Positions 33,238 to 59,295 of a stretch of DNA of 64,000 bases are shown piece after piece (within the stretch, counting starts at the first letter, position 1; each line of letters opens with the position of its first letter). The translations under genes and the position numbers were made by a program. Source of the DNA: Neophaeotheca triangularis (lineage: Eukaryota); contig BAAIJX010000031.1 of the NCBI GenBank assembly GCA_054600435.1, positions 186,001 through 250,000 on the forward strand, written 5' to 3'. The notes beneath the pieces are model-generated. The model did not search any database. It was not told the origin of the DNA and saw nothing but the letters and a program-made list of their open reading frames with translations.

Positions 33238-33327
33238 AATATTACCTAGATGATATAAAAGCGTAAGAAGATGCTATACGAATTGATCTTACATCGCGAC
33301 GACGCGTAGAACGCGCGGGCAGACGGG

Positions 33328-37899: not shown

Positions 37900-38610
37900 C
37901 GCCGAAGAGACACCGGAGGTGCTCACGTTGTATCCCAGATATTCCACTCTTGTGGTGAAGGTGCACTTCTTCAAGTTTGAATACAGCGCAAACTTTCTCA
38001 GCCACTCGGATACTTCTCGCAGGTGAGTCACATGCTCCTCTCTACTCTCGCTGTAGATCAGGGTGTCGTCTAAATAGACGACACAATATGTATCAATCAA
38101 CCCAGCCATGGTGCGATTGATGTAGTTTTGGAAGGTGGAGTTATGCCGTGAGTGGTAAGCTTGACTCTCGTGCAGTCGGCGAGTCGCATGCGCACCTTGT
38201 ACGCAGCGAAGCACGTACTTTTGGTGCCTTGAAGCGCTCTCAAAAAAGGCAAAGACACGTTCAGCTTTTTGAGACGGTAACGGGCTGCAAAGGCTTACGA
38301 GATGATGTTCACCTCCGAGCCATCGTCGAGAATGAAGTCTGCCGCAGCTGGCTCCGCCGTTGACATGACGGTGCCTCGCATGCGCTTCGACGGCCATGTC
38401 TCGACACCTTGCAACCGAGACTCCTGCCGTACTCTCCGGATGTCGGTGAGTTAGGCTGAATCCTTGCCCTTGTCTTTGTCACTGTCTTTCTCCTTCTAGT
38501 CCCTTTTCTTCTCGGCGGCCACTTTCCAAGTTTACGACGAGCCCTTGGGGTATTTGCTGGCATATTGACCTTTCTTGTCACAGGTCCAGCACACGACGTC
38601 TCCGAAGGGC
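37900..38610 (-). mobile_element. Ty3/Gypsy gag zinc-knuckle and RT fragment
   Basis: STFQNYINRTMAGLIDTYCVVYLDDTLIYS...LKKCTF...VEYLGY (YLDD motif). Upstream is a VVCWTCDKKGQYA knuckle relic. Confidence 0.85.
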
Positions 38611-38619: not shown

Positions 38620-41530
38620 TCTCTAATCTCATGACTCAAATAGCCGATCAGATGGCAGATCTAAACCATAGGATCAAGGCCACGGCAGAAGAAGAACTTG
38701 AGCAATCACGCAAGCCTCCCAGAACTCAACATGATGTCAACACGCCAACCACTACAGCAGTCAAGGGACGACAGCAACTCAGCCCGAGGAAGGTCCCCAC
38801 CTCCGTTTGCAAGGGAGGACGGCAAAGTGCAGGAAAACCAAACACCATCACCGATGATGGCACCACCGACACCTGACTCAGACAACGAAAGTCACACTCA
38901 ACGAGTCCACGCAAGGACAACAAACGAGGAGATCAATCCAGTGAGACTCCCACCACCGATATCCAGCTTGCAAGACACAGTAACCGAGGATGAATCGAAC
39001 AATGACACGTCCAAATACGATTACACCAACGACGACGAACTCGACGACAACAAAAACAGCGAAATTCATTGTGGAAGGACCAGACCCAATCAAGAAAATG
39101 GTCATCCACATCGCACGCTCGTACAAAGAAGTGTTCCCAAAGATCCCGGGCAAACGACGCCTGGAACCCAATCAATTCGAGGCCATGCTCTCGCGACTAC
39201 GAGCAATGTTTTGGGTCTACCGAAAGGTCCAACGTCGAGTACGACGCTGCGACCTTTGTCTAGGACAGGCCACTAATAGTAAGCACCTTCTACTGAGAAA
39301 ATGGTCACATTACACCGGACGGAATACGAATCCCGCATTCTATGAGACAACGAGTCAAGACTGTCAAGAATCGTTACAGAGAATTCCAGCTCACCTAAGA
39401 GCAAAAGAGAGAAGAAGAGATCACGCTGCAGGAAATGAAGAAACAAGCACAGGATTCCTTGGACTAATAGACTATAGTACCACACGACAAATTCCTACTA
39501 CTAGTCGACCGAAAGATGATTCTCGGGCACATCAAAGCAACCACACAAGGACCGATCACCGTACACGCGATTCAAGGAAAAGTCACGATCAACCCTCGGG
39601 ACGGACCCCTTTACTAGGAAGTCTCTCTCGACACAGCAGATTCATCCACCTACTTCTCAAAAAACGAATAGGACCTGTCGTTAAGAGCGAGCGTTGGGAA
39701 CTAAAGAACACAAATGCTCAACACTAGCAAGCATTAGGAACGGTCTTCCGAACAACATATACTGTTGATGGATACGAAATCTTTGCCATAATAGATTCCG
39801 GGGCCAGCGGAAAATTTATCTGGGAAACGTCAGTACGTCAGCATGGGTTAGCTACTCAGAAGAAAACAGATGGCTTGATGAACAATGAAGAAAGGATGGG
39901 TTTGGCCCTTTACTTCATCAGCCGCTTCACCACCGTTTTTCGTTCTGAAGAAAGGAGGAAAACTACGAATGGCTATCGATTTCAGACGACTCAATGCGAT
40001 CACCACCAAAAACCGTTATCCACTACCCAACATCGACGAGACGAGAGACCGACTCACCGGCTCACACTGGTTCACCAAGATCGATCTTCGAGATGCATTC
40101 TATTCAGTTAGAATGGCAAGGGGGGAAGAGTGGAAAACAGCTTTTCGAGCGCGCTACGGACTTTACGAATTTCAGGTTGTGCTTATGGGACTCACGAACG
40201 CCCTAGCAACCTGCTAACAACTCGTTAACGACATCCTAGGACGAGATCTGCTCGTCATCACTGTCATCGCTTACATTGACGAAATATTGATCTTCACGAA
40301 AGAATCACGAGAAGAGCATAATAAAGACGTACACGCAGTATTCGAACGACTCGACGAAGTAGACTTCAGAACCGCATGCGAGAAATCCGAGCTCTATAAG
40401 AAAGAAGTCGATTTTAAGGGCTTTGTGATCAGCACCACTAGGATACGAACAGAGCCGAAGAAACTCAATCGATCGAGGAATGGCCGACACCCAAATCAGT
40501 CAAGGACATCTAAGCATTCCTCGGATTAGCCAACGACAACCGGAAGTTCGTGCAGGATTGTTCAAGGCTCGGTACGCCCTTAATGAACCTCACAAAGAAA
40601 GACAAACTATTCGTATGGGGAAGGATTCAGCAAAAATCCTTCGACAAACTTAAGGAGTCACGGTACGACTGCTCCTACGCTTAGGATGTTCGACCCCAAG
40701 AGAACTATCCAAATCGAAACAGACGCCTCCGACAGAGCAATAGGAGCTTGCCTCACGCAAGAGGTTGAGAATAAAAGACACCCTATCTTTCTTGAGTCAC
40801 TAGCGGAACAGAACTACGAGATCTACGACAAAGAACTGCTCGCAATCGTTGCAGCATTGCGATACTAGACAGTTTACTGTGAAAAAGCAACCGGACTCAC
40901 CATCTACTCAGATCACAAGAACCTGCAATACTCCATAACAACCAAGGAATTGTCACGCCGACAATACAGATATTTAGAGCTACTCGGACAATCTAAGTTC
41001 GACATAGTCTACACTCCCGGAAAGGACAATGGGCGCGCCGACGCGCTAAGCAGAAGAAGCGACCACGTGGAAGGACACCTTCTACAGCAACACCGCATAC
41101 TGAGGGTTAATAGAGACGGAAGCCTTAGCGCTAACCCTCAGGAATTTAATTCAGTACTGCGAGTACTCAGGGATGACACCGAAGAATTCCCCGTCGAACA
41201 TGGGTGATTCAGGGTTCTAACCGAGCAGGAACACTAGTGCATCCAAGACCACCACGATGGACCTACTAACGGACCCGGGAATCGCTAGAACAGTGGAACA
41301 CATCAGACGCAACTTCGTCTTCCCCGGAATGAGACAAAAGGTCTCGGAATACATCAAGATATGCACAAGCTGCCATTACAACAAGGCTTCAAGATATGCC
41401 AAATATGGAAACCTCCAGTTTCAGGAACCACCGGATCTACAATGGAACGAAGTCACAATGGATTCCATCGTCAAGTCACTGAGATCCAAGGACCCTTCAA
41501 CAAACAAGGAGTACGAATTAGGAATACACT
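38620..41530 (+). mobile_element. Degenerate Ty3/Gypsy retrotransposon (gag-PR-RT-RNase H-partial integrase)
   Basis: Protease AIIDSGASG near 39790; RT LRMAIDFRRLNAITTKNRYPLP, FTKIDLRDAF, WKTAF; RNase H IETDASDRAIGACL, NYEIYDKELLAIV; integrase Zn-binding region and WNEVTMD. Many stops and frameshifts; truncated just before the nickel permease 3' end. Confidence 0.92.
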
Positions 41531-41567: not shown

Positions 41568-42866
41568 TCACCCCGAGTCTGCGTGTCGAGGTGAAGTCGA
41601 CGCAACAGCAGTGGTCTTAGCGATAACCTGCTCCGTTGCCCCCAACTTGTTCGCTGGGACCGACGACTGTCCTGCATCATCGGTATATTGAGACGAGGAC
41701 ACTGGTTGCTGGCTCTCGTTGTCTAATCCCTCACCGCTCACCTCAACTAAACGTGCCAACGACATACGCTTCTGGTCGACCCGCCGTCTCCATGGCTTAT
41801 ATAAGATCGCAGCAAGCCCCCCGAACATTACGAAACAGCCGCAGATCGCGCCGCCAATAATATCGTAGTGGTCGCCAGCGACTTCGACGCCGTGCCAGAA
41901 GGGACCGCCAAGCCTGGGCGCTACACTTAGGATCAAGTTCAGCAACTGCAAGATCCCAATCACTAGCGCCACAACAACAGTAATAGCCGTTAGCACGCAC
42001 TGATAGTACAGCACGGCGATGTGGTCTTTAGCTAACCGCGCAGAGGTATACAGACTCATCATCGCGGCGCCGTCGGTGGTGTCGAGGAGACACATGCTGG
42101 CGGTAAATAGGATTGGGAAGATCAGGATCAACCAGAACGATGTCCCCTTTGCAGCTTGGATGGAGGAGATACCGAGGAGGGCGATCTCAGAGGACGTGTC
42201 GAAACCCAGACCGAAGAGCACGCCGAGGGGGTACATTTTCCAGGGACGGTCGATTAGCTTGAACATTCTTTTGAGGAGCCGGAACACGAAGCCTCCACCT
42301 TCGAATTTGACTTCAGGGGGTTCGTGGCCTAGAGGGGAAGATTTGGCGACCTGGAGCTGGCGGTAGAGGCGGTGGAGGATGTATCCGTTCATGAGGCCGA
42401 GGACGATGAGGAAAGCAGAGGAAACTGAGGAGCCGATGATGCCGCCGACTTCTGAGAAGGGCCCGAAGCGGTCGGAGATGGCGGCTGAGGAGGCTGCAAC
42501 GACGATGGAGGTGACGACTACGATGGTCGAGTGGCCTAGCGAGAAGAAGGTGCCGACGGTGACGGGATGCTGGCCGGCTGCGACAAGACGCCGGGTCATG
42601 AGGTCGATGGCGGAGATGTGGTCGGCATCTAGGGCGTGGCGGAGGCCTAGGGTGTAGGCGAGCACGGCTGTCGAGACGAGGCTTGGATGGAAGTGCAGGA
42701 CGATGCCACAGGCGATCCATACTAGGATGTTGACTACGATCAAGAGCGCGATAATGGCAATTGCGGCTCCAGGTAGCTTTCGCAGTAGGGGTGTTCGTTC
42801 ATGATACTCTTTAGCTTTTGCTAGCAGATTCGCGGTAGGTGGTGGCGGGCAAGTTTCTCTGTCCAT
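41568..42866 (-). CDS. nic1: High-affinity nickel permease (NiCoT family, Nic1/NixA-like)
   Basis: 432-aa intronless ORF with NiCoT signatures LGLRHALDADHISAID, FFSLGHSTIV and GVLFGLGFDTSSE. Confidence 0.95.
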   Translation of the reverse strand: MDRETCPPPPTANLLAKAKEYHERTPLLRKLPGAAIAIIALLIVVNILVWIACGIVLHFHPSLVSTAVLAYTLGLRHALDADHISAIDLMTRRLVAAGQHPVTVGTFFSLGHSTIVVVTSIVVAASSAAISDRFGPFSEVGGIIGSSVSSAFLIVLGLMNGYILHRLYRQLQVAKSSPLGHEPPEVKFEGGGFVFRLLKRMFKLIDRPWKMYPLGVLFGLGFDTSSEIALLGISSIQAAKGTSFWLILIFPILFTASMCLLDTTDGAAMMSLYTSARLAKDHIAVLYYQCVLTAITVVVALVIGILQLLNLILSVAPRLGGPFWHGVEVAGDHYDIIGGAICGCFVMFGGLAAILYKPWRRRVDQKRMSLARLVEVSGEGLDNESQQPVSSSQYTDDAGQSSVPANKLGATEQVIAKTTAVASTSPRHADSG

Positions 42867-43049
42867 GACAGCGTATGCTCACTTTTAACAGCGCGGTCAA
42901 GGTGCAGCGAAACGCACCGCACCGATATCCAAAGCCCAAATACTTTTGAAGTAGAGGCCAGTAGTGTTTGTACAATCGAGCGATGTTCAAGATAACAGAT
43001 CCTGCTGGTGGACCCTGCGGTTGGTTAGGGCTCTTCGAGGAACACGCGG

Positions 43050-43116
43050 GAAGCAATTGTGCCAAGCATTGGCATACGTACAAGGTACGTATGCCAATGC
43101 TTGGCACAATTGCTTC
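43050..43116. repeat. Perfect 32-bp inverted repeat with 3-nt spacer, upstream of the nickel permease
   Basis: GAAGCAATTGTGCCAAGCATTGGCATACGTAC (43050-43081) - AAG - GTACGTATGCCAATGCTTGGCACAATTGCTTC (43085-43116). Confidence 0.95.
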
Positions 43117-43563
43117 GTTGGGCACGGACATCAATCCAAAGCCCACATCCCTGAATACGGATCGCGCTAGCACGGTCAAGTGTTTGAACGCTAGCGTTAG
43201 GACTAACTAGACTCCAAGCGAGAAGCGACCAGCGCTTATGCCATCGATTGCTCTAGCGAACTTATACGCCTAAGAATATTTGACGGCAGATATCGGTACT
43301 AGAAGCTCCAAGCAGTTCACTAGGAACGTTATACTGGATACGAAGCGGCTTGCGTGCATTGACCGTCCGCGCGTACAGACTGCATGTCAGATGTGTCAAG
43401 CGAAGAAGCCTATCAACGCAAGAATCACCGCAGTTGTATACACGATAACTTTCCATCATCATCAGCAGATGCTCCTTGCCGTGTAGGACTTGTGACGTGA
43501 GTCGGCTTCGGATTCGTGTTCTCAGCATTGCCTAAAATCTTAAATTTGGACTATCCATCGAAG

Positions 43564-44560
43564 ATGGCGAATCCGATTCTTGGGTAAGTCGTTTCTTAAA
43601 ACCTCCAATATAGATAAATAACAAAATAAGTAATAGATAGTCTATAGTGGAATGTTCAATTTCGAAATTAGCATTTGTCGTTTCGCCGTCTAGAAGCTCG
43701 TTTTGTCGAGAGCTTTATCCACACTCTTTGCTTTCGTGGAGAATGAGTTGCGAGAGTTCCTGAAGAGATGCGCGACGATATCCGACGTATATGAAGAGAC
43801 ATTTGCTCGCTTTACGAAATTCTGAGACTAGGACACTACGACTCGCCCCAACCTGTACCCGTCCAGGGGATGTCGACGAGCACTTAAGGTTTCGATAACA
43901 ACAAGTACAATGCGGCTAGCACGTTCTCATCCCACGAGCACAATGCACCGCCGAAGCCATACGAGGAACCACTGCCAGACCAGCCCTAGAGCCGCCAGTA
44001 CTTAAGCTCGATCTAGTGAGGACGTTTGCAGGATGAAGAAAGGACAAGAAGAAGGTGCGGATAGCGTTGACCCGGCGCCGCCACACGATAAAGTGAGTTC
44101 AAAGTTACCTAGCCCAGACATCAGTATAGCTGTTAGCTGCCCGCTATCCTCGTCCTCGAATGTCATCTGCTATAACGATTACGTTGCTATTTTCTTCTCC
44201 CGCGCACAGCTCTATGTTCTGGGAGACAAGTGTGGCGTGGAGCCATTAAAGGTGCTTTCAAGTGAGCAGGCCCTTCAGACACAGGAGCGTGCAGAAAAGC
44301 CCTTTGTCGACTTTCCGGACCTAGTGAGGCATGTCTTCGGGCACGATCCGAGAAAGACCGCTCGTGACTTCGAAGGACAAGCTCCCCAGAGCCCGCATAC
44401 ATCACCGGGGCATATTTTGCAACGTATCTGCGTGCACTTTGCTACCAATAATTTCGGATCTTGATTCGTTCCTCGAGACTTTGTCGTCTTTTGCGTGAGG
44501 GGGGGTTGTTTGTCACTCACGTGGCCAAAAAATTTGCATGGATGCAGCAATTAAAAATTA
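43564..44560 (+). pseudogene. BTB/POZ-domain protein pseudogene
   Basis: FVENELREFLKRCATISDVYEETFARF and IFFSRAQLYVLGDKCGVEPLKVL match fungal BTB proteins (HAxLYVFADKY-type motif). Several stops. Confidence 0.65.
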
Positions 44561-44619
44561 CGAACGAAAATAGAGCGCTAGCCGCTGCCCCGCTCTATCA
44601 CACAACCGCCTGTTAGCTG

Positions 44620-45935
44620 GTCAAGTGTCTCTTCCACAGTCTAACGCTCTATTGCCGCTCGCGCGTGACACCTTTCTATCGCCGTCAGCCCTTCGCCGCA
44701 CCTATCACATCTCGCTATGCTTGAGTCGAGATACAAGCCCATCACTCGCCTACTACAACCCTTCGTTGCAAATGAACTCGCGCATGATGCTCTCATCCAC
44801 GCTCCCTCTCCTAGATGCCAGCTACCTCTCCGCCTTCCGTTCTTCCATCAGTATGACTGAATCTAGGTCCCCACCTGCGCATCCCGTTCGCCCCGGCTCT
44901 TGCGCAAAGTCGATCATGCCATATGGTATGTCTACATGTAGGGTGAAGACAATGTCCGAAAAATCTACGCCTGTTCCTAGCGCCGATATCGCTACGATCA
45001 GACCACCTCGCTCTAACCACGCCCACAGTCTCTCTTCGCTATCTGCAGCTCCGGCGTGATAGTAAGCGCACCTCAACTCCTTCCCCAGTCGCTCGCACTG
45101 ATCCCTACTGCAGCTGTACACCACACCTTGTAGATTTAGATGCTTCTTTCTTCGCTCGCATAGTTGTAGCGCCTTCTCCTCTAGCTTTCCGTATTCACAT
45201 GTCTCCACCATGTATCTCGTCATGATCCGTGTCGTGACCGCCCCTAACGTACCTCGCCATCCGTGCCACCATATTCTCTTCTCTAACGCGAACTCCAAGA
45301 GTACTAGTAGCGTCGCGGTAAGCATAATTCTCGGCACCCTAAGTCCGCGTACTGCTCGGAGATCGGCGAGCTTCGGCCGCTAGTCGCTCGCGGAGATTGT
45401 CAGATGACTCTTGTCCATAACAGACCCTCCCGAGAATGTCTTTAGCACTAGCTGCGCGTAGCTAAGAAATGACTTCATGCGACGAATTCCGCGACGGTAG
45501 AGACTAGCGTGGCCGGGTTCTGCCCTCCTGGCCTATACTCAATGCAGTCGATCCTCGCTTTCTAAACCATTGCTACTAGATTGCCGACGAGTGGTCGGTA
45601 CGGCACGACGACAATTGACACACCCGGGTCGTCTAGACAAGCTAGCGCCATGAACAGCAAGCTCCCCGACCCCATCTGTTAGTAGTCTAATGCTAGCGGA
45701 GTCGTCTACTCGCCCGACACGATCGTACGTAGTGCCTCTCCCTGTTCTTCCGACCGGAACGAGATGTCATCGCGGCGTAGCGCCTTCCTCATTGCCTTCT
45801 TAAGATCCTCTTCGCTTACTGCCGGGTTCGTGAATCTCCTCTGATCGATTGTCAATAGTGCCGTCAACCTGTTGTAGAGCGGCAACTGCTCGAGATGCGC
45901 GGCCGTGCTCGGGGTAACAGCGATCCCCATCCTGG
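44620..45935 (-). mobile_element. Second, partial copy of the RecQ-helicase element
   Basis: High nucleotide similarity to about 29040-30090. Encodes LTATL, YYHAG, SALGTGVDF and DFAQEPGRTG (motif VI). Frameshifted. Confidence 0.9.
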
Positions 45936-46536
45936 CGACGAACTACGGCGTGAACCGCTGCCGTACGTGCTGACCAGTCCTCTGTTGTACCGGGATGAGT
46001 TGCGGCGTGGTCATCGCGTATATCCTAGTATTGCATTGGGTGGGCGTATCACTGTCCTGTTCTTAGAGTTGCTGCTGCTGCAATGGTTGGGGCACGTCGT
46101 GGCGACATGATGATGGGCGGCAGCGCCCTATGACCTAGGTAGGTAATATGGAGTCTCTACCTAGGCCGTTCTAACTAGACTATCGCCTTACTAATCCCCT
46201 AGAGGATCGCCCTCTTCTTACTATTCTGGTTTCCACTTGCAATTGCCTGAACTGCCACTACGCTGTTATGAAGACCTGCGCAGGTCCCTTGTAGTAGTCT
46301 GTTGTTATTAGGGGATGGGGGTGGTAGTGGATTGGGGTGTGAGAGGGGGTCCGAGGTCATGGCTATGGATGGTGTGTGATATCGGTCTCCTAATAACTTT
46401 CTTCTACCTAGTAACGGGTGGAATAGAGACGTAGAGCGATGAACTTTGCTATGTAGGAGCGAGGTACACACTTTCATCAAGCCTCGAGGAAGTCGCGACT
46501 TCAAGGCCTGAACCTTCTTTGTGAAAGTAAGCAACT

Positions 46537-47424
46537 CTAGGAGTTGAATATTCTAGTGTACAGTTTCTCATGCAATCCCACCCAAAGATCCATGATTGGT
46601 ACCACCTGTGTTGCATCTTCTATCTCTGTCTCCCATTGAAGTTCTAGCGCATGACTTAGACTTTCTTGTAGCCATCCGGACGCAAGAAAGGCTTGTGCGT
46701 GATATGGCCCAATGACAGAAGCGCGCACTGCAGCAGACAGGAGTGATTGCGCATGTTTGAATAGAAAGACATACCCGGCGGTCTTCAAAGGAATGGACAT
46801 GGCGCGATTGACCGTTCCCCAAAGAACCGGGAAATGACCCGCTAGCTGCGTAGTAGCCGGTGTAGGATGTCGTAGCGCAGCCGCAAAATCCTCCAGAGCT
46901 TGAACACTGTCTTGATCTTGCAAAGACTGATCGAGACTGCCTACAAGCGACCGGCGCCAGACACCTAGTAGCGCTCGCCCCTGCGTCACACTCGCTCTCT
47001 TTGCCACTTGACACAGAGTTGAAGCATCGAGGTTGTCATCCAGGCTCATCATGTCGTGAGGCCGCCGGTAGGCAGCTAGCACATATGGGAGTACTGTGCT
47101 AGACATGGAAGCAAGGGACAGCACAACAAATCTCCGTAACTCCTCGTGTCTGACGAGCTGAGGACGATGGTGAGCAATGAAGGACTCAAGCCCGCTTGAG
47201 AAGGCGAACGACCCGAGAGGAAGCGCGGAATCGGAAAGTACCAGTAAGTAGTGATGAGAGCCAGCAGAGCTCGCTTCTAATTGATTAGGACCAGACGTCG
47301 GCAACGTAGTGCATTTGTTGAACATACCAATCTCGTCCCCGCCTAGCTCTTGGGATATCCTTTCTCCTAGAGGCTGGTATGGTCGGCTATCCACATTTTG
47401 CGTGTCCCTATACCTAGATGCCAT
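46537..47424 (-). CDS. ureF: Urease accessory protein UreF
   Basis: 295-aa ORF with LLVLSDSALPLGSFAFSSGLES, AGHFPVLWG, SAAVRASVIGPY and the canonical C-terminus HEKLYTRIFNS. Confidence 0.95.
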   Translation of the reverse strand: MASRYRDTQNVDSRPYQPLGERISQELGGDEIGMFNKCTTLPTSGPNQLEASSAGSHHYLLVLSDSALPLGSFAFSSGLESFIAHHRPQLVRHEELRRFVVLSLASMSSTVLPYVLAAYRRPHDMMSLDDNLDASTLCQVAKRASVTQGRALLGVWRRSLVGSLDQSLQDQDSVQALEDFAAALRHPTPATTQLAGHFPVLWGTVNRAMSIPLKTAGYVFLFKHAQSLLSAAVRASVIGPYHAQAFLASGWLQESLSHALELQWETEIEDATQVVPIMDLWVGLHEKLYTRIFNS

Positions 47425-49030
47425 TTTTTCTCCGCCCTTCGTTAACGGGCTGTCAAATATGTTTACTTAAAGAAGAGTCTTCGGGCTCGAGCTTGCTTGC
47501 ACAGAACGCGAGGGCAGCTAGTACACGAGGTGTAATGAATATTTGGTTAGGGCGCATGAGGTCGCAGAATTCGCATACGTGTTCACCGACCCGGATTTTG
47601 CCACCAAACAGTCCAAAAAACCTGTCGTCTGCCAAGCTCTGCGGAGTTGTAGCGTCTATCACCAAGATCTGGTGGTAAGGCGCCGTACGCACCGATCCAC
47701 GTGACCGAGCGCGCCAGGTTACTGCTCGAGATCCACGATGGTGACGCCATCGAGGTCGCTTGGGAGCATTACTGTAGACGTCTTCAACGACTGGTAACGA
47801 ATGACTATGCTTCCGTAACTCGTACCCGGCATGATGTTTAGTTATGGATAACTCCTCTATCCACCGGAGTTGTGAGGTAGCTGCAGTACAACGCTTGAGC
47901 AGGTAATACTCAGACTGCTCTCAGTGTTACGACCTCGAGCCCATGCGGTAGCAGCAACACAGGCCCTAGAGCAATAGGGTCTTCATATTCCTTGGTGGTG
48001 TTAGCAACAACCTTATCATTGCACTTCAACGTCCATGTTGCGGCATACGCGCAAACCCCAGTAGATCATTCTTGACAAGGTCCTGCTCATGAGCTTCCAT
48101 CTTACTCTTAACCTCGCCCTGACTCTCACCATAAGGGTGCATCTTGCTAGTTACGATCAGCTCGTCCACTGCAGCTATGGCCTTCTACGTCTTCTGCGCC
48201 TCAACTATGCGTCGCTTGCAAGCCTCAGCGATCTGACGGTTATTCTCACGCAGAGCTTCTAGTCGCTCTTTGCTTTCCTTCTCCCACCGCGCAATATTCT
48301 CCTCATGCTCACACGCCACTCTTCCTCAGTCATTTGGTCTTTATCATATCGCTTTTCCACTCTAAAAAAGGCCTGCTCTAAGGACCTTAAGAACAGAGCA
48401 CCAAAATCACGACTCGGCTCGTCACTAGGCTCGCCCTCCGACTTAGTACTATCGTTGTCTTCGTCAAAAGCAGTGAGGCCGCGAGCATCGCAACTGGGCG
48501 GTGACAACGGCTTGGTAGCAAAGGTATTGACACTGTGCTGCTGATTACTAGAAGGTGGCGGCGGTGACATCGGGCGGCGGTGACGACCCTAGTATACGGA
48601 CACGTTGGGAAGCCTGGAAGGCATGAGTGGGTGCTTCAGGCTTCAGTTGTGGAGGCACCATGAACACCACTTTCGATACCGCAATACCAATAATATAGAC
48701 AGGATATCAGAGCTTCAGTATGGTGCGGAATAGCAGCAATCACGCAATGGAGCCAACTCTCGCCAAGTTTCGGTGGAGCTAGGTCTCTTCGCATGAAGCT
48801 TGGCAGACGACAGTCCTCTTGGAAGGAATGATAACATATTCGAGCGGTACTGCGGAGGTTTCGGTGGTTACCTAGGTACAGTGCGCAAGTGACATAACGT
48901 CATACTGTAAGTGCACCAACGCGGCTTCGATAAGGGACTAAGCCGGACGGGCGCACGGGGGTGGCCAAATTAACATTCCTACAGCTCATGCTTTTGATCA
49001 TCGATTTGAAAACGGCTATAGTACAACACT

Positions 49031-50428
49031 ATGGAAGCACTTCCATTTACTGTGGAATTGAAGTTCCCCACACAGCATGCCTATCGCCCTGGCCAGAGTA
49101 TCAGTGGCGAAATTGTGCTGAACAAATCTTCTCCGGTCCGCATCAAGCACATAAGCTTACGGCTGCGCGGTAGGCACCCTCGTCTGTCTATACCATCTTC
49201 CTTTCTAAACTTCACGCAGGCCAAACGCGCACATGGCGTCATGTTGACGAGCGCAGAGAGGTCGTTTCTACTCTCGTCCATTCAGTAAGTCTCTTGTGAT
49301 CTGGCTTGGTGGCCGCTGCCTAATAGCCAGTTTCCAGTTTTTGGAGCAATCCCAGCGGTTCCCTGGAGCCCTCTCGCAAATCAGCACACTGTCCTGCCAG
49401 ACAAATCTCTGCATTCCATTCTTGATGAAGATAACGGACAAGCTGTTGTGTGATCACGGAAACAATCCTTTAACCGCTCGCCCCCCCCCTTCTTGCAAAT
49501 CAGGTGCGGTCTTCACCGATTCAGCGTCTGGGACCGTGTACATGCAGCCTCTGATTGAATATGCATTATCTGTTCTTGTGGTTTTTGAGACATCAGGGCA
49601 GCGGAAAAGAGAATCGACTACTGCAACTGAGATCGAGATCGAGTCTTCACTCCCGGTAACAGCACCCTCGTACTCGCTTAAGACACAGAGTGAAGACTGT
49701 TGTCCTCGGCGCTTAAAGTTCTTCCGAAGGAGCATTTTCGCTACGGCCGCACGAAGGATTTACCTCGAGATACAGGAACCCTTCCCAGTATTCTCAGGCC
49801 AAAGGAATGTGTCTCTTGCACTCCGAGGTCGACTTAAGATTTCGATCCCGCGTTCTTCGACAGTCTCAGCAAATACTAGCGACAAGACATCGATTCGCAT
49901 GGCAGCGCGTTTGGACATGGATGTCTACTCAGGAACGCGCGACTCCAGCAACGGTGCCACTTCGTCCTCGAAGCTACACAGGCTTGTGCAAACTACTTCC
50001 TGGCCGTTGCGCCATCTTAGTATGGCACTCAATCCTTGTCCACACCCATGCCGCGATGACGCAACTGCACTCGGTGATTGCTGCGCGCAAGACATCGTCT
50101 TCCCGATAGAGCTGCCTGACAACTTGGCGCCCGCTTTCGACATGGTCTCGGCAGGTCGCTACTATTCACTTCACGTAACAGCTGCAGCGGGTGCTCTCCC
50201 TCTGGAAGAAAGCGTGACCGTACCCCTCCAGGTTCCCCACGATCAAGATGCGCCAGCCGCATATGACTCCAACGAAGGCGACGCGACGCTGGGCATGTTA
50301 GTAAGTCCTTCCTTAAGCTACCCTGTTCCGAGCATAATAGCAAAACTGTCGCGGAATACTCGGCATGCATTGGCTGACGACTGAATTTGCTCGTTCAGTT
50401 GCCAGAATATGATGACTTGATCCGCTGA
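49031..50428 (+). CDS. Alpha-arrestin-like protein, 4 exons, about 398 aa
   Basis: Exons 49031-49169, 49220-49284, 49338-50300 and 50399-50428 splice in frame via GT-AG introns. Motifs YRPGQSISGEIVL...ISLRLRG, PPSC, IEYALSV, LAPAF..RYYSLHV and terminal LPEY (PY-like). Confidence 0.65.
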
Positions 50429-51639
50429 AAAGTCTCCGTAGAGACTGCACTCGACTCAGAGTCGCGATCGACTGTGACCCTACGGAAGAAGATTACTAGT
50501 CCCATTCAAGTCTTGAATCGCCTTCACGGTATAGTGGTGTTGCGTCAATAACGACATAACGATAGTCAGACAGATTCTCCAGCTGCGCTTCTCTACCCTA
50601 TGATCGATTATCTCCTCACCGGTAGGACTTTCAGGGTTCTCTCCGGTCCAAATAACTACTCTCCTCTTTCGAGAAACCTTGCTGTCCACCTCACATGTTC
50701 TCGCCTTTACTGGGTAAGCCCACTTTCCTAGCTTCAGTTCTTGATACACCAGATCTTTGACGTTTTCGAGACTACCTGTACGCACCTTGACAAGTCGCAT
50801 CGTGATCTCCTCGCTGTCGGCCAGAACATTGTTAAGGCGGCGCGGGAGCCTCGCTTTTTAGCACCGGGAAGTCGTGCTGTTTGATCAGCGTGCGGACATC
50901 GCCAAAAAAGACAACGTCATGCTGGCCGATGAGCCTCCGGTTGTTCTCGTAAGCGATAGTGTAGGAGCTGTTAGCGCGATTCCCAAGCGTTTTCGAACGC
51001 ATTATTGAGACAGTTATTGCTCTCGTGAATTCGTTGGAAAAGCCTAATAGTGTAGGCGGTGACAGTCGTAAAGGGAGAGGCATTGTTCTTGTATTTCACG
51101 AGTTTTCGTAACTCCATCATTTCAGACGTGTATACTCTCCTTCTAACAGCAGCATCTCTTTCTAGCGCAGCTGACGCGTTGGGAACACTTTTCCTTAGAT
51201 TCGGCCAAACTTCTCCGCTTCGGACGCATAAGTCAAGGATGGGAGGACGTTTCTGGAAGGGGAACACGATTAACAAAGAGACAATTTCTGAATTCGCTCT
51301 GGAATATGACGGCAGCCAAGTACAGCCCAAATGACTGCTCAGCAGATCAGAACACTTACTTCCACGCGCTGAGCTGAGAACTTCATGGCGTCTGAACCGA
51401 AGTAACAAATCGATAGTCGCATCAAGCCACGTCAGCGCGAGTTGCATTCGCGATGACTAGGTCGAATATACCCTCTTCACACATACACAAGTAACGCTGC
51501 CCGTCAAGGTAGAGGTTGAAAGGAATACATGTGTGTGCATAGATAAATAGCATTGGTGTCGAGAATCCTCATCCGAGTCATCTACACAAATCGAAAACAC
51601 TATTCGTAGCCATCTCCAAGTACAATTCCGCACACTTGA

Positions 51640-54600
51640 TCACATCAGATAATGCGCCTGAGCCAGTGGGACTTCAGACATTGCTGGCGCACAACATTCA
51701 AGACCGTCGGCGACGACTGTCTGCTCATATAGTCAGCATGACTTCGCTTCCTGACGTCCAAGGGTTGGGCGACTTACAAAGGTTTCTGGATCGACCTTCA
51801 TCTTCGGCGTGGCTCCGTTGAATTTCATGTCATGTTTGCCGACACTTCGCGTGTCCTTCACAGCTTCCACTCTTTTACCGAGGCCATAAGAACCTACGGT
51901 GCCACTCGCGATACCCGCCGCGGAGACAAACATCACGCTCGCATGCGGGACCAGGGGCTGTCGGTATGAGCAGTGTTCTTTTTTGTGTTTGCTTGATGGA
52001 CTCACTGAAAACATTGGCCTCGATAAGATTGGCTGTACCGTCGCGATTCTAAGCTTCAGGGTTAGATTGGGCATGACGAGAAGACAGCGGGCACCTTACG
52101 ATGCGTTTGGATCGCCCTGATACATAGTTAGTCAATCACGCTTTGTCAATCACGCTTTGTCATGCAAGCAGTTCCAATGGAACTCACCATCTGGGCAGAG
52201 GCAATGAAGCCGCTCTTTAGGACTTGGAAAGGCTTCGTGCCAAATCTGGAGGGTTCCCAAATGACCAAATCGGCTAACTTCCCGACTTCGACACTTCCTA
52301 CCACGTGGCTAATGCCTTGTGTAATGGCGGGGTTGATGGTATACTTGCTGATGTACCTCTTCACTCTGTGGTTGTCAGCGCCAGTGCCTTTGTCTTCATC
52401 TAGAAAACCTCGATGAACTTTGTTCGCATGAGCCGTGTTCCAGGTACGCGATATGGTTTCGCCACATCTACCCATTGCCTGAGAATCGGACGACATCATA
52501 CTAATGGCCCCGAGGTCGTGTAATACGTCCTCAGCAGCAATAGTCTCTGCGCGAATCCGAGACTCAGCAAAGGCTATATCCTCCGGTATGTCTTTTGACA
52601 AGTGGTGACAGGACATGGCCATATCTAGGTGTTCGTCGACCGTGTCTGTAGTAAAGGGGCACGTTGGGTTGGTACTGCTAGGAAGAACATTCGGGTACTC
52701 CACTAGTCGAATCAAGTCCGGAGCATGGCCGCCTCCTGCACCTTCGATATGATATGCGTGAATGGTTCGCCCTTTGAAAGAAGCCGCGGTCTGTTCCACG
52801 TAACCAGCTTCATTCAGTGAGTCGCTGTGGAGCTCGCACTGAATATCGTGCTCGTCACACAATCTAGGTGGTTGTTAGCAAGCTAGCTAAGAACTGAAGC
52901 ACATTACTTACGATAGACAGTTGTCAATGGATGAAGGCGTGCAACCCCAGTCTTCGTGTACTTTGAGACCCGCCACACCTGCGTTCGCCTGATCTCGTAG
53001 TCCAGGGATCCCTGTGTCACTTCCTTTGCCTAGTATCCCATAGTTCAGCGGCAAACGATCGCAAGCTTGCATCATGCGGCCAATGTTTTCCTTTCCAGGA
53101 GTGCAGTTAGCTGCCACGGTGGCGGTACTACTTTACATTAGCACAGCTTCTTTTCTAGCTTCGAGGCAATAGTTCACCTTGGACCAGTCCCGCCACTGAA
53201 TTGTGTGGTAATACCCGCAGCTAAAGCTTCTTCAGCCTGCTGAGGGCAAATGAAGTGACAGTGAGTGTCAATTCCCCCAGCAGTCACTATCTTGCCTTCT
53301 CCTGCAATGACATCTGTACATGACCCGACTACCAAGCCAGGGTTCACTCCATCCATTGTGTCGATGTTTCCGGCTTTCCCGAGCCCAGCTATGTGTCCTT
53401 TCTTGATGCCAATATCGGCCTTGAAGATGCCGGTCCAATTGATGATGAGAGCATTCGTTATGACTAGATCGAGACACTCGTCATCGGATCGACCACTCGC
53501 CTGGCCGATGCCGTCCCGCAACGTCTTGCCTCCTCCAAAAGTGCACTCGTCGCCGTAGCTTGTGAGGTCCTCTTCCACCTTTACCCATAGATCAGTCGAA
53601 GAAAGCCGAACAAAATCGCCAACTGTGGGACCGTACATGGAAGCGTAAGCCTGACGATCCATTTTGCAGGCTTCGAGTCGCCCTTCCGTCTCGGTCGCGA
53701 CTTCCGGCGTGTGACAAAACCTCTCCTCCTCCAAACGACGAAGTATAGTGCTCGCCATGGACAAGTCAATTCTGCCAGGTGCAATGCTACTTCCTCCTCG
53801 AATAGTCTTGAGACCCCCAATCTCAACCAGTGATACAGTCTTAGTATCTCCTGGTTCGAAGCGTACCGAGGTTCCGGCCGGAACGTCGAGATGATAACCG
53901 TAAGACCTCAACCGATCAAAATCCAAGCAAGGATTCGTCTCAATAAAATGGAAATGCGATCCAATCTGCTATCCTTCAGCATGTAGCAACACTAGTGGGT
54001 TTATGGGAAACCCAACATACCTGCACGGCACGATCACCTTTGTTGGTGACCTGGAGTCTTCGCCTTGGTCTCCCCTTACGTAGCACGACATCGGGGCCCT
54101 TCGCAGTGACAAGAGCCCCTGGCATCTTCTCATGCTCGAATTCTGACTCGTCAACCGGTGGAAAAACGTCCATTTTGGGCGGATCAATACAACTGCCGTA
54201 CATCGCCAACGTCAAGTCCCCACCGTCTGTGGAGATGGGCTTGTCGACAGTAACAAGATGAGTGCCTGTTCGGAACGTTCCTTCTACCTGTAGACCAGCA
54301 ACCGTGGAGGTGACGGATGGCTCCACGTGTCTGCGTCCCAGGATCTTTTGCCCGATTGACATGAGATCTGAGACAGTGTGGTCGCCATCGCGTATGAGCT
54401 GAGCATTCATCAGTCTCATGACAGTCTTGATGGCTATTGGTTCTCATCGCCAGACATACCTCGTGAATGACGCAGAATATGAGGGCCTACTTTCGTCAGC
54501 TACCAGGTACAATTGATTTCATAGATGGCCAGTACGTACTGTGGCTTCAGTGCCGTTCAGCTTGATCCCCCTAGCAAGACGTCGTTGGGCGAGATACCCA

Positions 54601-54711
54601 GCTTGTGCAACTAGGAGTTTGTCTAGCTGTAGTGAAAGCGTCAGAATCACGGACAACAAGGCGGTCTGTTGTCAGGAGGGCTCGACTCGCCTCTCTCGGC
54701 ATGAGATGCAT
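51640..54711 (-). CDS. ure1: Urease (single-chain gamma-beta-alpha, eukaryotic type), 11 exons, 837 aa
   Basis: Ten introns (54690-54627, 54539-54487, 54459-54399, 54020-53966, 53177-53128, 52911-52864, 52187-52117, 52099-52049, 52005-51958, 51777-51721) leave a 2514-nt stop-free CDS. Ni-ligand and catalytic motifs [31 protein letters not shown] and SSDSQAMGR are all present. Confidence 0.97.
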
Positions 54712-54913
54712 TGTTCCAAAACGCTCACAAAACTCTCTTTGAGGGATGAAGTTGCTGTAGTGGGCAACCGAGAGAATTTGATCGGAGAGTGCACGATAGA
54801 GTGTGGGATGGGTTCCAAGTGGAGATGATTTCGAACGAACTTCGTTGCCGTATGCGCACTTATGTTGTCTCCCTTCCAGGTGCTCACAAGACTCCACTAG
54901 CCGGGAGCAGCGT

Positions 54914-54979
54914 CTTGGCATGCGGGGTCGATCTTGGCATCTTGGCTATCATGCTTCCGTATGAGCCGGCGTGACGTCA
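54914..54979 (-). promoter_or_regulatory. Three GCCAAG (PacC-consensus) sites and a TGACGTCA (CRE/ATF-type) site upstream of urease
   Basis: CTTGGC at 54914, 54933 and 54941; GCGTGACGTCA at 54969-54979; all 200-270 bp upstream of the ATG. Function is inferred from consensus only. Confidence 0.45.
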
Positions 54980-55239
54980 AAGGCGCCGTGTCGGAAGACT
55001 CCACAGTTGTGTACGGAAAACCTTAGCGGGAGGGTCCACGCCGGCCTGCAATGGATGTGGCTTGCACGGAAGACGTTCGTGACAGCCTCGTCGGCTGTAG
55101 TACCACCTACCTCTGCATAGCTATATTTGCCTACGTGCTGCTTTTTGCCTTTTTAGCTGATATCCCTTTCCACGTTGATGCGGTATCTATCCCTCGCTCT
55201 AGCCGAACTTGTGCTCCTGGTGTCCTCTTCCACGCTACT

Positions 55240-56760
55240 ATGAGTTTAGAGTTTAGCCCATTCGGACAAAACGGAAACGGCTGTAAGCCAGACTCTACTG
55301 GCTTCAAAAAGCGATCGAAAGAGCAAAACTTTACTGCTAACCAGGCTGACACACTCAATGGAAACCGTGGCTCATCCCAGGACCGCCACGATGAGAATAA
55401 TGTGACGGAACAGCTGCACTCCCATCCTCAAAAAGACCATGGAGCGAACGCCTGTGAGCGTGTCGAGACCTTGAAACTGGATAGAGGAGTGTTGAAGAAG
55501 ATTGAGAAAAGCCTCGTCCGCAAACTCGACCTGATCTTAATCCCTAACGCTTGCATCTCGATCATCACGAAAAAAATTGACACAAACGATTACAAGGACG
55601 AATGACGACATGGGCCTTGAAGGCACTAAAGCCCTCAACTGGCTCAATATCTACTTCAACATCGCTTTTGCCATCTTTATCGTTCCCTCGGTCATTATCA
55701 TACCTCGCGTGCGCCTCTCCCTCTGGCTGCCTGCCCTTAACTCACACGGGGCGTGCTGACCGGACGCATGGCGCTGGCTAACACTCTGAATCAAATGTAC
55801 ACCCTTCGTTGGTCCATCGGCCTGTGTGAAGCAAGTATGCAATAGCGACAGGGACGACAGACTGTGTCCGTTTGCCAACATGTGTTAGGCGGAGGGGGCC
55901 GACCTGACGGTCGCAAGGGTGCAAGTAGCGGGCGCGGGTGGTATTGGGGTAGCCCGGTATGGTGTAGAAAGGTAGGCACGCGGACATGACGGTCACGATG
56001 CAGTTGACTATGTAGAGCCAGCGCTAGCCGGGCAGGCCACTGTGGTTATCGAGGGTCTGGTGAATGGCGCTCTGCACAGCGAGAGTGAACACGCTAACGG
56101 CACACGAACCTCATAGATGTTTTGCTCGGTGCTTAGCCATCTCGCAAGACGTGTATCAGCTGAGGAGGACGGGGACTCCAGGCCACCCGTTGTTCGTACA
56201 AGCGTGCAGAGTGCTGCTTGGTTTAGAGGTCGCACTACTCTTCTTAGCTTACGCGCCCTGGGCGTGGGCTCAGAATATTAACGCTTACTTCAACATCTAC
56301 CTCGACAGCCTACGGCGGTACTCCATAACAGAAGTGACGAATATAGCCGTTGCCGCTTATATGATTAGCATCACTGGCTCGCTGGTCTTCGCCTCTTTAT
56401 CAGACCGCTTACAGGCCCGCTGGCAGCTCGCTATCTTCGTCAACGTTATTTAGCTCGGGCGCACTTGCATACTCGCCGTTCGGCCCAGAAGCACGGCTTT
56501 GAAGATGTTCGCCTCCCCGCTCAGTTTCATTACAGGTATCAACGAGCCTTCGCTGCTCAGCTAGATAGGGGACACGTGCAAGGATTTACCAATCGAGCGG
56601 CCCTTCATCATCGCTTCGACGCTGTCGCAACCGTTCGTCGGCAACGCCAGTATGCCGCACGCTTTGTGGTCTGCAAGTCAAGTTCCTAACTACAAAAGTG
56701 GACACAAATTCGATGTTAGTATTTGCATGGCGAGTCTGTGGCGAATTGTGTCGCGAGTTG
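55240..56760 (+). pseudogene. MFS permease of the allantoate/pantothenate (Dal5/Liz1) family, with an internal inversion
   Basis: Plus strand: EKSLVRKLDLILIP, NWLNIYFNIAFAIF, YFNIYLDSL...LSDRLQARW. Minus strand (about 55780-56230): GGLESP, TLDNHSGLPG*RWLYIVNCIVTV, IPGYPNTTRARYL. Confidence 0.85.
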
Positions 56761-57041
56761 CGCGGCGAGTTGCGTGGGAACACCGATTTATCGGGGTCTA
56801 ATTGCTAAGTAGCGGGAGTGAGCGTATGCTTTCGTCTTGCTTTGCCAGTTCGAAGTAAACATAGAGAGCGAGTGACCAGCAATTTCGTATTTAATCTCTA
56901 GCACTACCCTCGCGCGAAAGTCTCCGGAAAACGCCGTGTTTGATGCTCCCACGAACCCTCTCCCTTCCGTCCTCATTCAACCTTTGAGCACCTGGGGAGC
57001 TAATTATCCCCAACCCTCCGCTACTATCTTCTAACGCTGAA

Positions 57042-58028
57042 TCAGCGATCTTGTAGACAGAGCAAGTATTGCTTGCCGAATTCCTTTTCCACAGTGCCGT
57101 CACTAGTCAAGAGATCTCTCAACCAATGTCGGGCATGTTCCACTGAGGTCGCTCCGAATCTGACGACAACGAAGTTGCGAACTGAAGTCGCCGTCCATGT
57201 AGGCTGATCTTTAGTTGGTTGGGGAAAGGTCGCACGTCCTTCGTTTTGGCATCCGATTGCGTCCGAATTTTGGGACCAATCTCTATCACCGGCACGCGGC
57301 TGACAAGCGTAATGTTGAAGAAAATGGTTTCCTAGGTTTTCAAATAAAGGCCCTCGGATGATGACTGTGCCAAAGACCCCTAGTTGCTCCATACGTTCCC
57401 GCAACGACTGCGTGAGTAAAGGAGACTTGGCGAAGAGCATCGTGTTGTCTCTCAGTAGCAATCTTCCTCCTTTCTGCTCCTCTCCGTTCGTTTTCGTAGG
57501 CAAGGACCATACTTCGTTCCGTGCTCTCCACTCTGTGAGATCCCATCTCTCATTGCGTGCGCTCCTTCCCTCTGATACCCAGTCCAACAAGAGCAGACTA
57601 GAGCTGAGAGGATCAATCTCAAAAATTTGCTCTTGTCTGTATACACTCCCCCTGAAGGGCTGTACAGGATCCTGGAGAACCACTAAAGACGCGTTATCCC
57701 TGATGGTAACCTTTAAGGACTGCGTAGTGCACCTGACGTTTGGTAGGCTCCTGTAGATCTTTGTGCTTCCTTGTGTCAGGAGGCCTAAGCGAGCGTTGGA
57801 GAGTATTTCGGCATGGACTTCGATCTCGTCTCCGGCAACAAGTCCACCTCCGTGGTTAAGGACAAAGACAAGTACTGCGCTTGCACCGGGCGGCGAGGAT
57901 GGCGATATCAACCTCACAGGGTACGTGCAAGCAAGGGCCTCGACTTTGGAAGATCGCAGTCCAAATGGCCTTGCGCAAATATAGCCGCGACCACCGGTCT
58001 GGCCTGACTGTACGGACGCTGGACGCAT
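57042..58028 (-). CDS. ureD: Urease accessory protein UreD
   Basis: 328-aa ORF with YPVRLISP, HGGGLVAGD, LLTQGSTKIY, DPVQPF..SVYRQEQ, LLDWVSEGRSARNERW and LLLRDN. Confidence 0.95.
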   Translation of the reverse strand: MRPASVQSGQTGGRGYICARPFGLRSSKVEALACTYPVRLISPSSPPGASAVLVFVLNHGGGLVAGDEIEVHAEILSNARLGLLTQGSTKIYRSLPNVRCTTQSLKVTIRDNASLVVLQDPVQPFRGSVYRQEQIFEIDPLSSSLLLLDWVSEGRSARNERWDLTEWRARNEVWSLPTKTNGEEQKGGRLLLRDNTMLFAKSPLLTQSLRERMEQLGVFGTVIIRGPLFENLGNHFLQHYACQPRAGDRDWSQNSDAIGCQNEGRATFPQPTKDQPTWTATSVRNFVVVRFGATSVEHARHWLRDLLTSDGTVEKEFGKQYLLCLQDR

Positions 58029-58200
58029 CGAGAAGAGTTTGCTCAGTAAAGGGGTTGATGGAAAATCTACAGACTTTCATCCTTGTTTCCTACAAAGCGT
58101 TAGTACCGAGATAATAAGTAACTTCTTTCACTGCGCTGACTGCCCAGACCGTCGATGTCATGTTGGAGCGTATCAGCACTACGGTCAACTCTCTAATGCC

Positions 58201-58348
58201 CGATCAGCTCCGAGTTGAATTGGGATCCGAGCGTGACATCATGATTGATCACTGGGTCCACGGGTGTCGGACGATAAGCTCCGAGTCAGCTGTGGACTCG
58301 AGCGTGACATCATGAAATGATCAGATCACTTTGGTTCCCGGGTGACGG
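58201..58348. repeat. Imperfect ~70-bp tandem duplication in the ureD-ureG bidirectional promoter
   Basis: Units at about 58201-58270 and 58272-58348 share an identical 17-mer CGAGCGTGACATCATGA at 58228 and 58299; GATAAG at 58273. Confidence 0.8.
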
Positions 58349-58464
58349 CCGCTGCCCAGATATACATCGAACCCATCCCCGCGCAGTATCATGAGTCTCT
58401 CCCCGTTCTCGCCCAAACGCATGTAACGTGCGCATTGTCTCTCGGATTCGGTTCTACATTCTAA

Positions 58465-59295
58465 ATGACCATGGCATCTCAATCTCTCTATCTTGCGAAC
58501 GAAAGCCACTCCCATGCTGGAGAGGGTCACGGACACACACACGAGCTTCTGTCCGGACCTGGCTCGTTTACACTACGCGAGAAGCCGGTTGTCGAGGGTC
58601 GAGACTTTCACGAACGAGCATTCACTGTTGGCATTGGGGGGTTGGTCTCCCGCACATTCCCTACATGAGATCTCCTACGGACTTATAATGACATGTAGAT
58701 TCATAGTCCTGTTGGGTCCGGCAAAACGGCCCTGATGCTCGAGCTTTGCATCGCGTTACGACAGAGTCACAGCATAGCCGCCGTAACTAACGACATCTTT
58801 ACGCGCGAAGATTGCGAATTTCTCACCCAACATCATGCTCTACCTAGCGAACGTATTCGCGCGATCGAAACTGGTGGATGCCCGCATGCCGCTGTGCGAG
58901 AAGACATATCTGCGAATCTCGCGGCTCTGACCGACCTCCACCGAGACTTCGACACCCAGATTCTGTTGATAGAATCCGGGGGCGACAACCTTGCGGCTAA
59001 CTATTCACGAGAGCTCGCGGACTACATTGTTTACGTTATAGATGTGAGCGGCGGGGACAAGATTCCGAGGAAAGGTGGACCTGGGATCACTCAAAGCGAT
59101 CTCTTAGTGGTGAACAAGACTGACCTGGCAGATATTGTGGGTGCTGATTTAGATGTGATGGAAAGAGATGCGCGAAAGATTAGGGATGGCGGACCGACTA
59201 TCTTCGCGCAGGTGAAACACGGGAAAGGCGTCAACGACATAGTGGACTTGATACTGAGCGCATGGAGAAGTTGCGACGGCAAGAGTATAGAATAG
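58465..59295 (+). CDS. ureG: Urease accessory GTPase UreG, 2 exons, about 254 aa
   Basis: His-rich N-terminus [13 protein letters not shown]. Intron 58641-58706 restores the P-loop GGPVGSGKT. Also [24 protein letters not shown] and NKTD. Confidence 0.96.

Follow-up and report, generated by a model that had tools for sequence, protein, structure and literature searches.

Five linked urease and nickel-transport genes in the black yeast Neophaeotheca triangularis and their relation to a second fungal urease clade

Described urease systems and the Neophaeotheca locus

The urease system of Cryptococcus neoformans is built from URE1, URE4, URE6, URE7 and NIC1, of which all three helpers and Nic1 are required, and its urease level is set by the nitrogen source (accessible part of PMC3663189). 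The same five components, including a fused urease and a His-bearing N-terminus of UreG and likewise without UreE, were found in the DNA analyzed here, a 64,000-nt stretch of the Neophaeotheca triangularis contig BAAIJX010000031.1, which is called the window throughout. This organism is a black yeast, for which marine and deep-sea isolates are described in abstracts. Genes were located by six-frame translation of the window and Pfam profiles, and a NiCoT-type nickel permease, UreF, urease, UreD and UreG were all present at 41568–59295 with open frames and complete nickel ligands (Table 1). In the available text on Cryptococcus the accessory genes are not clustered and the urease is single-copy, whereas the five Neophaeotheca genes share 17.7 kb, their urease falls in a separate paralogue clade, and the His tail of UreG is shorter (5 His in the first 30 residues vs 17 in 52 residues of Cryptococcus Ure7). 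The first-pass annotation of this DNA had described that tail as His-rich; histidines do occur there, but the tail, which would take over the role of UreE, is small.

The ureDABCEFG operon of Klebsiella aerogenes (also matched through PDB 1ejw/2kau) shares with this locus the chemistry, the ligands, the grouping of the genes, and the order of maturation, in which UreD binds to apo-urease first, followed by UreF and then UreG, eukaryotes doing so without UreE (PMC6077230, in its accessible sections). That operon is polycistronic, encodes three subunits and includes UreE, whereas the Neophaeotheca genes are separate, lie on both strands, carry introns and are of fungal ancestry. Clustering of ure genes had been taken as a purely bacterial trait, which does not hold, because algal clusters of urease-assembly genes have been published (PMC7826186, accessible text). 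These likewise link a eukaryotic urease to its accessory genes, in another kingdom and presumably by independent assembly. The fungal DAL, GAL and nitrate-assimilation clusters, which the same text names, similarly combine nutrient-acquisition genes from eukaryotic sources and are patchily distributed. They consist of consecutive enzymes, in contrast to the enzyme–chaperone pair that forms the nucleus described below.

Second urease copies have been reported for Fusarium graminearum and F. oxysporum (PMC3073912) and for ‘C. immunda’ (PMC5844311), where the available passages state how many copies there are, without clade or linkage. In the literature covered, which largely excludes subscription journals, neither a fungal urease cluster nor a urease–UreD paralogue pair was found to be described, and the accessible parts of PMC7325687, PMC5488104, PMC2944026, PMC11381361, PMC13203064 and one bioRxiv preprint contained nothing on a fungal urease cluster. 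A second fungal urease that adjoins a helper gene of its own in unrelated, scattered moulds is apparently undescribed. Linkage between ureA and ureB is said to have been reported for Aspergillus nidulans in the classical literature.

The five genes occupy 7.0 kb of the 17.7-kb cluster. Models for the permease and urease were letter-for-letter identical to the NCBI proteins P0403 and P0283/GAB7363747.1, which are both on one 256,738-bp contig. The initial claim of five intact genes within 17.7 kb is borne out, with two reservations about the word intact that both concern UreG, namely its small His tail and the frameshifted RNA contig described below. The urease model contains no stops and 10 introns, the first of which is GC-AG, and residues 1–836 of its product were aligned with jack bean urease 3LA4 (E = 1e-285). 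Residues H406, H408, K489, H491, H518, H544, C591, H592 and D632 match the jack bean enzyme, so that the four Ni-binding His, the carbamylated Lys, the Asp ligand and the flap Cys-His (C591-H592) are all kept. On these residues the product is a predicted nickel urease (EC 3.5.1.5) of the eukaryotic single-chain type. UreG carries the P-loop, GGCPH, ESGG and NKTD motifs, and UreD, UreF and UreG are, as judged from domains and motifs, the predicted eukaryotic urease maturation set. A start at an alternative in-frame ATG (47424) would lengthen UreF to 295 aa; the closest homologues are 238–260 aa. The permease scored 218 bits against the NicO domain PF03824 (cut-off 28) and 283 bits against the bacterial TIGR00802, which is under its cut-off of 333. 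It contains the motifs RHALDADHI (residue 76) and FSLGHST, of which the former fits RHxxDADH, which we take to be the NiCoT signature. The permease is classified by these matches as a predicted member of the NiCoT (HoxN/NixA/Nic1) family. No urea transporter was found within the window.

Two urease clades and the linkage of Ure2 to UreD

A urease tree was constructed from 77 rows of at least 670 aa, taken from 120 listed matches and their cluster members, with shorter and many further rows left out. It was divided into two clades of 45 and 32 rows at a Shimodaira–Hasegawa-like approximate likelihood-ratio (SH-aLRT) support of 100. Most rows of the 45-row core clade (Ure1), which includes the two Fusarium ureases of the tree, sort by class or order. 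The 32-row clade, termed Ure2, mixes Neophaeotheca, Hortaea, Vermiconidia, Coniosporium uncinatum, Cordycipitaceae, Aspergillus, Penicillium and one Flavoplaca metagenome-assembled genome. Among the named Dothideomycetes listed, only Vermiconidia, Hortaea and Coniosporium uncinatum fell in Ure2, and among the named Sordariomycetes only Cordycipitaceae. When four bacterial outgroups were added, all fungal ureases grouped together at 100/100, Ure2 was recovered at 100/100 on a long stem, and the Cordycipitaceae adjoined Neophaeotheca and Hortaea at 100/98. Furthermore, approximately unbiased (AU) tests on 27 urease rows under LG+G4, for which taxonomic groups were used as constraints chosen after the tree was seen, rejected trees in which the Dothideomycetes (p = 5e-6), the Eurotiales (2e-7) or the Sordariomycetes (3e-5) were kept whole as a single clade. 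The cluster urease failed to group with core class-mates such as Parastagonospora and Dothidotthia (p = 5e-6) and formed part of the separate clade. The Ure2 motifs were kept in 30–32 of the 32 rows. By these trees and tests the cluster urease is assigned to a distinct paralogue clade that is discordant with the species tree, which is the outcome of the gene-tree comparison proposed with the first-pass annotation.

For UreD, a midpoint-rooted tree of 77 rows from a quick search exhibited a split matching that of urease at 96, with the window and Hortaea joined at 99. In the UreF tree (66 rows), the window protein, Hortaea werneckii g417 and further proteins formed a clade at SH-aLRT 99. A comparison of the window UreD with a close relative of 65% identity, encoded on locus L001, gave a nonsynonymous rate (dN) of 0.24 and a synonymous rate (dS) of 1.84, which is near saturation, and hence a dN/dS of approximately 0.13, indicating purifying selection. 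The earlier suggestion that the cluster is kept intact by selection is thus upheld for UreD, the single gene measured.

Linkage in other fungi was evaluated from the 12 of the 24 other named Ure2 species for which a same-assembly UreD was seen. Ure2 and its own UreD were on one contig in all 12, and their identifiers were consecutive in eight: H. werneckii NU219Hw (g418/g419), Akanthomyces muscarius (LMH87_006064/65), Cordyceps javanica (V2A60_007682/81), Aphanocladium album (PWT90_05518/17), C. fumosorosea (OAA49692/93), Aspergillus ambiguus (KAL4889572/71), Penicillium concentricum (N7517_007574/75) and P. brevicompactum (KAK9847365/64, with which N7506_008206/05 of a second strain agrees). 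For P. palitans, A. glaucus, A. ruber and A. chevalieri equal contig size was the only ground for a shared contig, which in one case is as large as a chromosome. Such linkage was not observed for core genes. None of four core urease/UreD pairs (Xylona, Glutinoglossum, Vezdaea, Cadophora) and neither of two core UreD/UreF pairs (Pycnora, Acarospora) shared a contig, as judged from differing contig sizes. As a metagenome control, 80 fungal ureD loci were kept of 182, comprising 79 of core type and one of Ure2 type. Another ure gene was seen in the flanks of none of the 79 core-type loci (both-side flanks of at least 3 kb in 30 and at least 9 kb in 16), so the linkage in the window is beyond chance. 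These counts (0/79 loci, 0/4 pairs), together with the “not clustered” genes of Cryptococcus in the available text of PMC3663189, agree with the statement of the first-pass annotation that ure genes are unlinked in other fungi, as far as the core copies are concerned. No second full five-gene cluster was found on the metagenome contigs with the 80 ureD loci kept.

The conserved nucleus is Ure2 with its own UreD, and it occurs across three fungal classes. Since the predicted pathway genes are linked, and the urease–UreD linkage is kept in other species, the locus qualifies by its gene content as a fungal metabolic gene cluster. The view that it was assembled from eukaryotic genes is in agreement with their fungal ancestry, but the locus is no one-off; it is the largest member of a module seen in three classes. 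Hortaea g417/g418/g419 are UreF, urease and UreD, with UreF before urease as in the window. The accessions of Hortaea UreF and urease are consecutive in two further assemblies and separated by a gap of three in another, and contigs of 12,161 and 6,965 bp apparently carry UreF, urease and UreD, and UreF and urease, respectively (equal sizes). In three of three same-assembly comparisons in Aspergillus, the UreF found belonged to the core UreF clade and was on another contig. Linkage of UreF was thus seen in Hortaea and here, and that of UreG and the permease in the window only. As a separate observation, a UreD and a UreF (P0008/P0010, P0125/P0253) whose branches fall between those of the core and Ure2 are apparently both encoded on one 18,571-bp ENA contig, which may represent another, separate linked set.

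Proposed history and competing explanations

We favor, with modest confidence, the reading that the locus encodes a functional nickel-urease pathway based on the second urease lineage (Ure2) of filamentous ascomycetes, with the following history. The NiCoT permease would import Ni2+, UreD would bind to apo-urease, UreF to UreD, and UreG would load nickel with GTP hydrolysis in the absence of UreE. The urease would then split urea to ammonia, most likely as a means of gathering nitrogen in saline habitats that are poor in nitrogen and nickel. The starting core is presumed to be the pair of Ure2 and its own UreD, to which the black-yeast branch (Hortaea, Neophaeotheca) would have added a dedicated UreF; the Neophaeotheca locus additionally holds UreG and the permease, the latter probably a later, host-derived arrival. 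UreD may be the constant partner because it is the helper that contacts the enzyme, so that a diverged urease would keep it, while UreF and UreG could be borrowed from the core set. The patchy, tree-discordant distribution suggests that at least some horizontal transfer occurred between fungi via transposon-rich accessory DNA, a mobility proposed because of the tree discordance and the setting among transposon relics. The earlier description of the cluster as transferable is supported to this extent, but lacks a mobilizing gene (see below).

A more specific proposal, which we regard as plausible though somewhat more doubtful than not, is that this second urease system moves horizontally as a urease–UreD cassette, since Ure2 would mature only with its own UreD. 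Further partners would have been gained in the order of their contact with the enzyme (D, F, G and the nickel importer), leading here to a module of five genes that is fully autonomous and fits salty, dry or marine niches. Several Ure2 carriers are salt-, drought- or rock-adapted. In Aspergillus sclerotialis, urease activity was enriched among salt-downregulated genes (PMC6563132, accessible part), which speaks for salt responsiveness of urease rather than for a benefit.

Several observations weigh against the favored reading. Monophyly of the Dothideomycete Ure2 without the Cordycipitaceae is compatible with the AU test (p = 0.066). The root position is unstable, with Ure2 nested among Pezizomycotina cores in the outgroup tree vs sister to all cores in the 27-row tree (support 24/82), which would also agree with an ancient duplication followed by many losses. 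No named genome among the matches listed carries both Ure1 and Ure2. In L001, unrelated genes occupy the 2.5 kb downstream of UreD, where the window has the relic of a major facilitator superfamily (MFS) transporter and then urease; a 600-codon frame on the opposite strand (L001 1412–3214), which follows this Ure2-type UreD, is presumably acyltransferase-like. A scan of 140 of the 189 open reading frames of at least 90 aa revealed neither a Starship captain (DUF3435) nor another mobilizing gene, and element ends may fall outside the window. In the promoters, GATA sites were without clear enrichment and shared 8-mers were no more numerous than the random mean. The UreF result for Aspergillus and Penicillium applies to the 120 matches listed, below which a Ure2-type UreF of these genera could rank. 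Lastly, the sole UreG RNA contig with a spliced joint (run X2, depth 3) used a frameshifting acceptor, leading to a stop near codon 70.

In a rival history, which we hold to be rather unlikely, an ancient duplication was followed by loss in some lineages and not in others, and horizontal transfer played no part. It supposes that a linked Ure2–UreD2 pair dates from the early Leotiomyceta, was inherited vertically and was mostly lost, being perhaps the ordinary or sole urease locus in Neophaeotheca and Hortaea. The root between Ure1 and Ure2 in the 27-row tree and the tolerated Dothideomycete monophyly are what this history would give. UreF is also present in many H. werneckii assemblies (31 and 10 contigs, two alleles), every H. 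werneckii strain tested was urease positive according to the available part of PMC7325687, and the Ure2 copies have diverged deeply (urease 70–80%, UreD 44–51% identity), so that no recent jump is indicated. Very many losses would be required, however, as Ure2 is so sparse among named Dothideomycetes and Sordariomycetes. Moreover, the Cordycipitaceae Ure2 (70–78%) are about as close to the cluster urease as that of Vermiconidia (72%), and the locus sits amid transposon relics and pseudogenes.

An equally doubtful alternative, compatible with either history, regards the permease as a chance neighbor of a real unit UreF–urease–UreD(–UreG). It is 3.7 kb away from UreF, and a transposon remnant lies in this interval. 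Its GC content at third codon positions (GC3) of 0.67 fits the flanking transporter genes (0.60–0.66) and not the other four cluster genes (0.49–0.56). Its best named relative, Diplodia seriata Nic1 (66–68%), is an ordinary Dothideomycete Nic1. On the other hand, a nickel permease within 4 kb of a nickel-enzyme cluster would be improbable by chance in a fungal-sized genome, and the gene is intact while several neighbors are broken. Its GC3 and best relative suggest that the permease joined separately, probably as a later, host-derived addition to the cluster. No named relative of the cluster type came up in a representative search with the permease as query, two of 150 matches having been looked up. 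An intronless permease homologue of ~81–90% identity was detected on an 88-kb contig of run X6. Run X7 has a short urease match, the loose end of which resembles core Ure1 (M before LGRR). At high identity, neither of these two runs contained any of the 20 kb. Both share the coded organism label of run X1, a possible source run, but this label is possibly wider than the species, and strain-level presence or absence was for this reason not deduced from them. The perfect inverted repeat upstream of the permease (z = −12 vs shuffles) may have been left by a transposon, may act as a regulatory hairpin or may be an artefact of assembly.

It is improbable, in our judgment, that the cluster is a redundant, decaying spare module, in which UreG is mis-spliced and which is heading for loss like its broken neighbors. 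The UreG intron is in-frame as modeled, and splicing at an alternative acceptor 8 nt further upstream (58698) shifts the frame; the out-of-frame contig described above is the kind of transcript that decay would produce. A short UreG His tail, a broken MFS gene and transposon remnant inside the cluster, and a retrotransposon whose gypsy integrase breaks off at a distance of 38 bp from the stop codon of the permease point in the same direction. Against them stand the five open frames, the catalytic residues and nickel ligands, all of which are kept, the dN/dS of UreD, and the Ure2 motifs conserved across the clade, and a single contig at depth 3 gives no isoform ratios. Pieces identical to the permease, urease, UreD and UreG were found in two RNA runs, one marine and one aquatic, with one spliced joint; these contigs are low-depth and assembled. 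The two acceptors 8 nt apart, taken by themselves, may reflect splicing-level control of urease maturation or noise.

The import of a bacterial ure operon that gained introns afterwards, to which the gene content (urease, D, F, G, nickel importer and no UreE, as in UreE-less bacterial operons) would correspond, is effectively refuted by the 10 introns and mixed strands, by the single fused chain with 65–66% identity to core fungal ureases vs at most 59% per segment to split-chain bacterial matches, by the 100/100 grouping of fungal ureases against bacteria, and by named UreD and UreF matches, of which all those listed are fungal. The bacterial ureases compared (L082–L085, two titled Verrucomicrobiota) have two chains, gamma-beta and alpha, and are 56–59% identical over the alpha part. 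A bacterial operon of co-directional, intronless genes with separate subunits was accordingly rejected on the gene models and the outgroup tree. The early judgment that these genes are fungal-type and not an imported operon stands, given the 10 spliceosomal introns, the fused chain and the place of the urease among Pezizomycotina ureases.

Genomic setting, regulatory sequence and significance

Table 1. Features in and beside the cluster (window positions).
Feature	Position	Strand	Description
NiCoT permease (Nic1/HoxN-type, high-affinity)	41568..42866	-	one exon, 432 aa; PF03824 E 2e-64
UreF	46537..47325	-	one exon, 262 aa; PF01730 E 7e-21
Urease, fused gamma-beta-alpha	51640..54711	-	11 exons, 837 aa; Pfam, TIGR01792 above cut-off
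UreD	57042..58028	-	one exon, 328 aa; PF01774 E 2e-52
UreG GTPase	58471..59295	+	252 aa, one intron 58641-58706; TIGR00101 257 bits vs cut-off 204
UreD/UreG divergent intergenic region	58029..58470	.	442 bp; genes head-to-head
Arrestin-like gene, intact	49031..50428	+	4 exons, 398 aa, no stops (gene model)
MFS transporter pseudogene, approximate limits	55360..56760	+	MFS-like fragment E 5e-4; stops in all three frames
Helicase-bearing transposon, degraded partial copy	44601..45961	-	Helicase_C + DEAD matches; 86% identical to 29018-30112
Perfect inverted repeat, 32 bp, 3-nt loop	43050..43116	.	184-250 bp upstream of permease start
Ty3/gypsy-type retrotransposon, broken	39728..41530	+	RT, RNase H, integrase zinc finger; left flank of cluster

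The cluster genes are interspersed with an intact arrestin-like gene, the pseudogene of an MFS transporter and the remnant of a helicase transposon. The arrestin-like assignment came from an Atlas lead, with Arrestin_N on 12–38% of top-cluster members and recognition below threshold. This gene is probably incidental, because the gene numbers of UreF and urease are consecutive in Hortaea. A piece identical to it in run X3 crosses its predicted introns unspliced, and X3 may therefore be DNA. A sugar transporter from 63181 reads through 535 codons without stops, and a BRE4/ArAE_2-like transporter (34095–37361) consists of two long open frames that a one-intron model fails to join. The first impression that most neighbors are pseudogenes is correct for the MFS gene and the transposons, which are broken, and not for the arrestin-like gene and the sugar transporter, whose frames are free of stops. 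To the left are a longer copy of the helicase transposon (DEAD, Helicase_C; ~29018–33300), an open 574-aa frame with a PD-(D/E)XK_12 nuclease domain (25961–27685), and two reverse-transcriptase remnants on opposite strands (37882–38478 and that in Table 1); WD40/AAA fragments also belong to the setting. Scarring of this region by repeat-induced point mutation was considered and dropped, because the composite indices were mostly negative and the 99 transitions between the transposon copies fall chiefly at CpG (40) and CpA (26).

The region between UreD and UreG, a candidate shared promoter, contains a 44-nt direct repeat (58201–58244 and 58272–58315) with the cAMP response element (CRE)-like TGACATCA in each copy, and a perfect CRE-like TGACGTCA was found at 54972, upstream of urease. 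The promoter scan gave 8 GATA sites vs ~5.9 expected, 7 PacC-type vs 2.5, and 4 CRE-like vs 0.6; palindromic sites were counted twice and the counts are uncorrected for multiple tests, so they serve as leads only. We assume that the CRE-like sites in these two regions may hint at stress regulation by basic leucine zipper (bZIP) factors.

The chemistry of the cluster is ordinary. Fungal urease genes have been taken as single-copy and dispersed, and a second clade that has an adjoining chaperone in three classes and extends to a complete pathway in black yeasts changes this picture. The graded series of two, three and five linked genes provides material for testing why eukaryotic genes cluster, and it carries the prediction that Ure2 needs its cognate UreD. 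If the cassette proposal were true, the series would be a natural one on the assembly of eukaryotic clusters and on whether co-adaptation of protein interfaces drives clustering. For common species of Penicillium, Aspergillus and Cordycipitaceae, Ure2 is a possible hidden contributor to urease phenotypes, and for marine black yeasts the locus points to urea as a nitrogen source.

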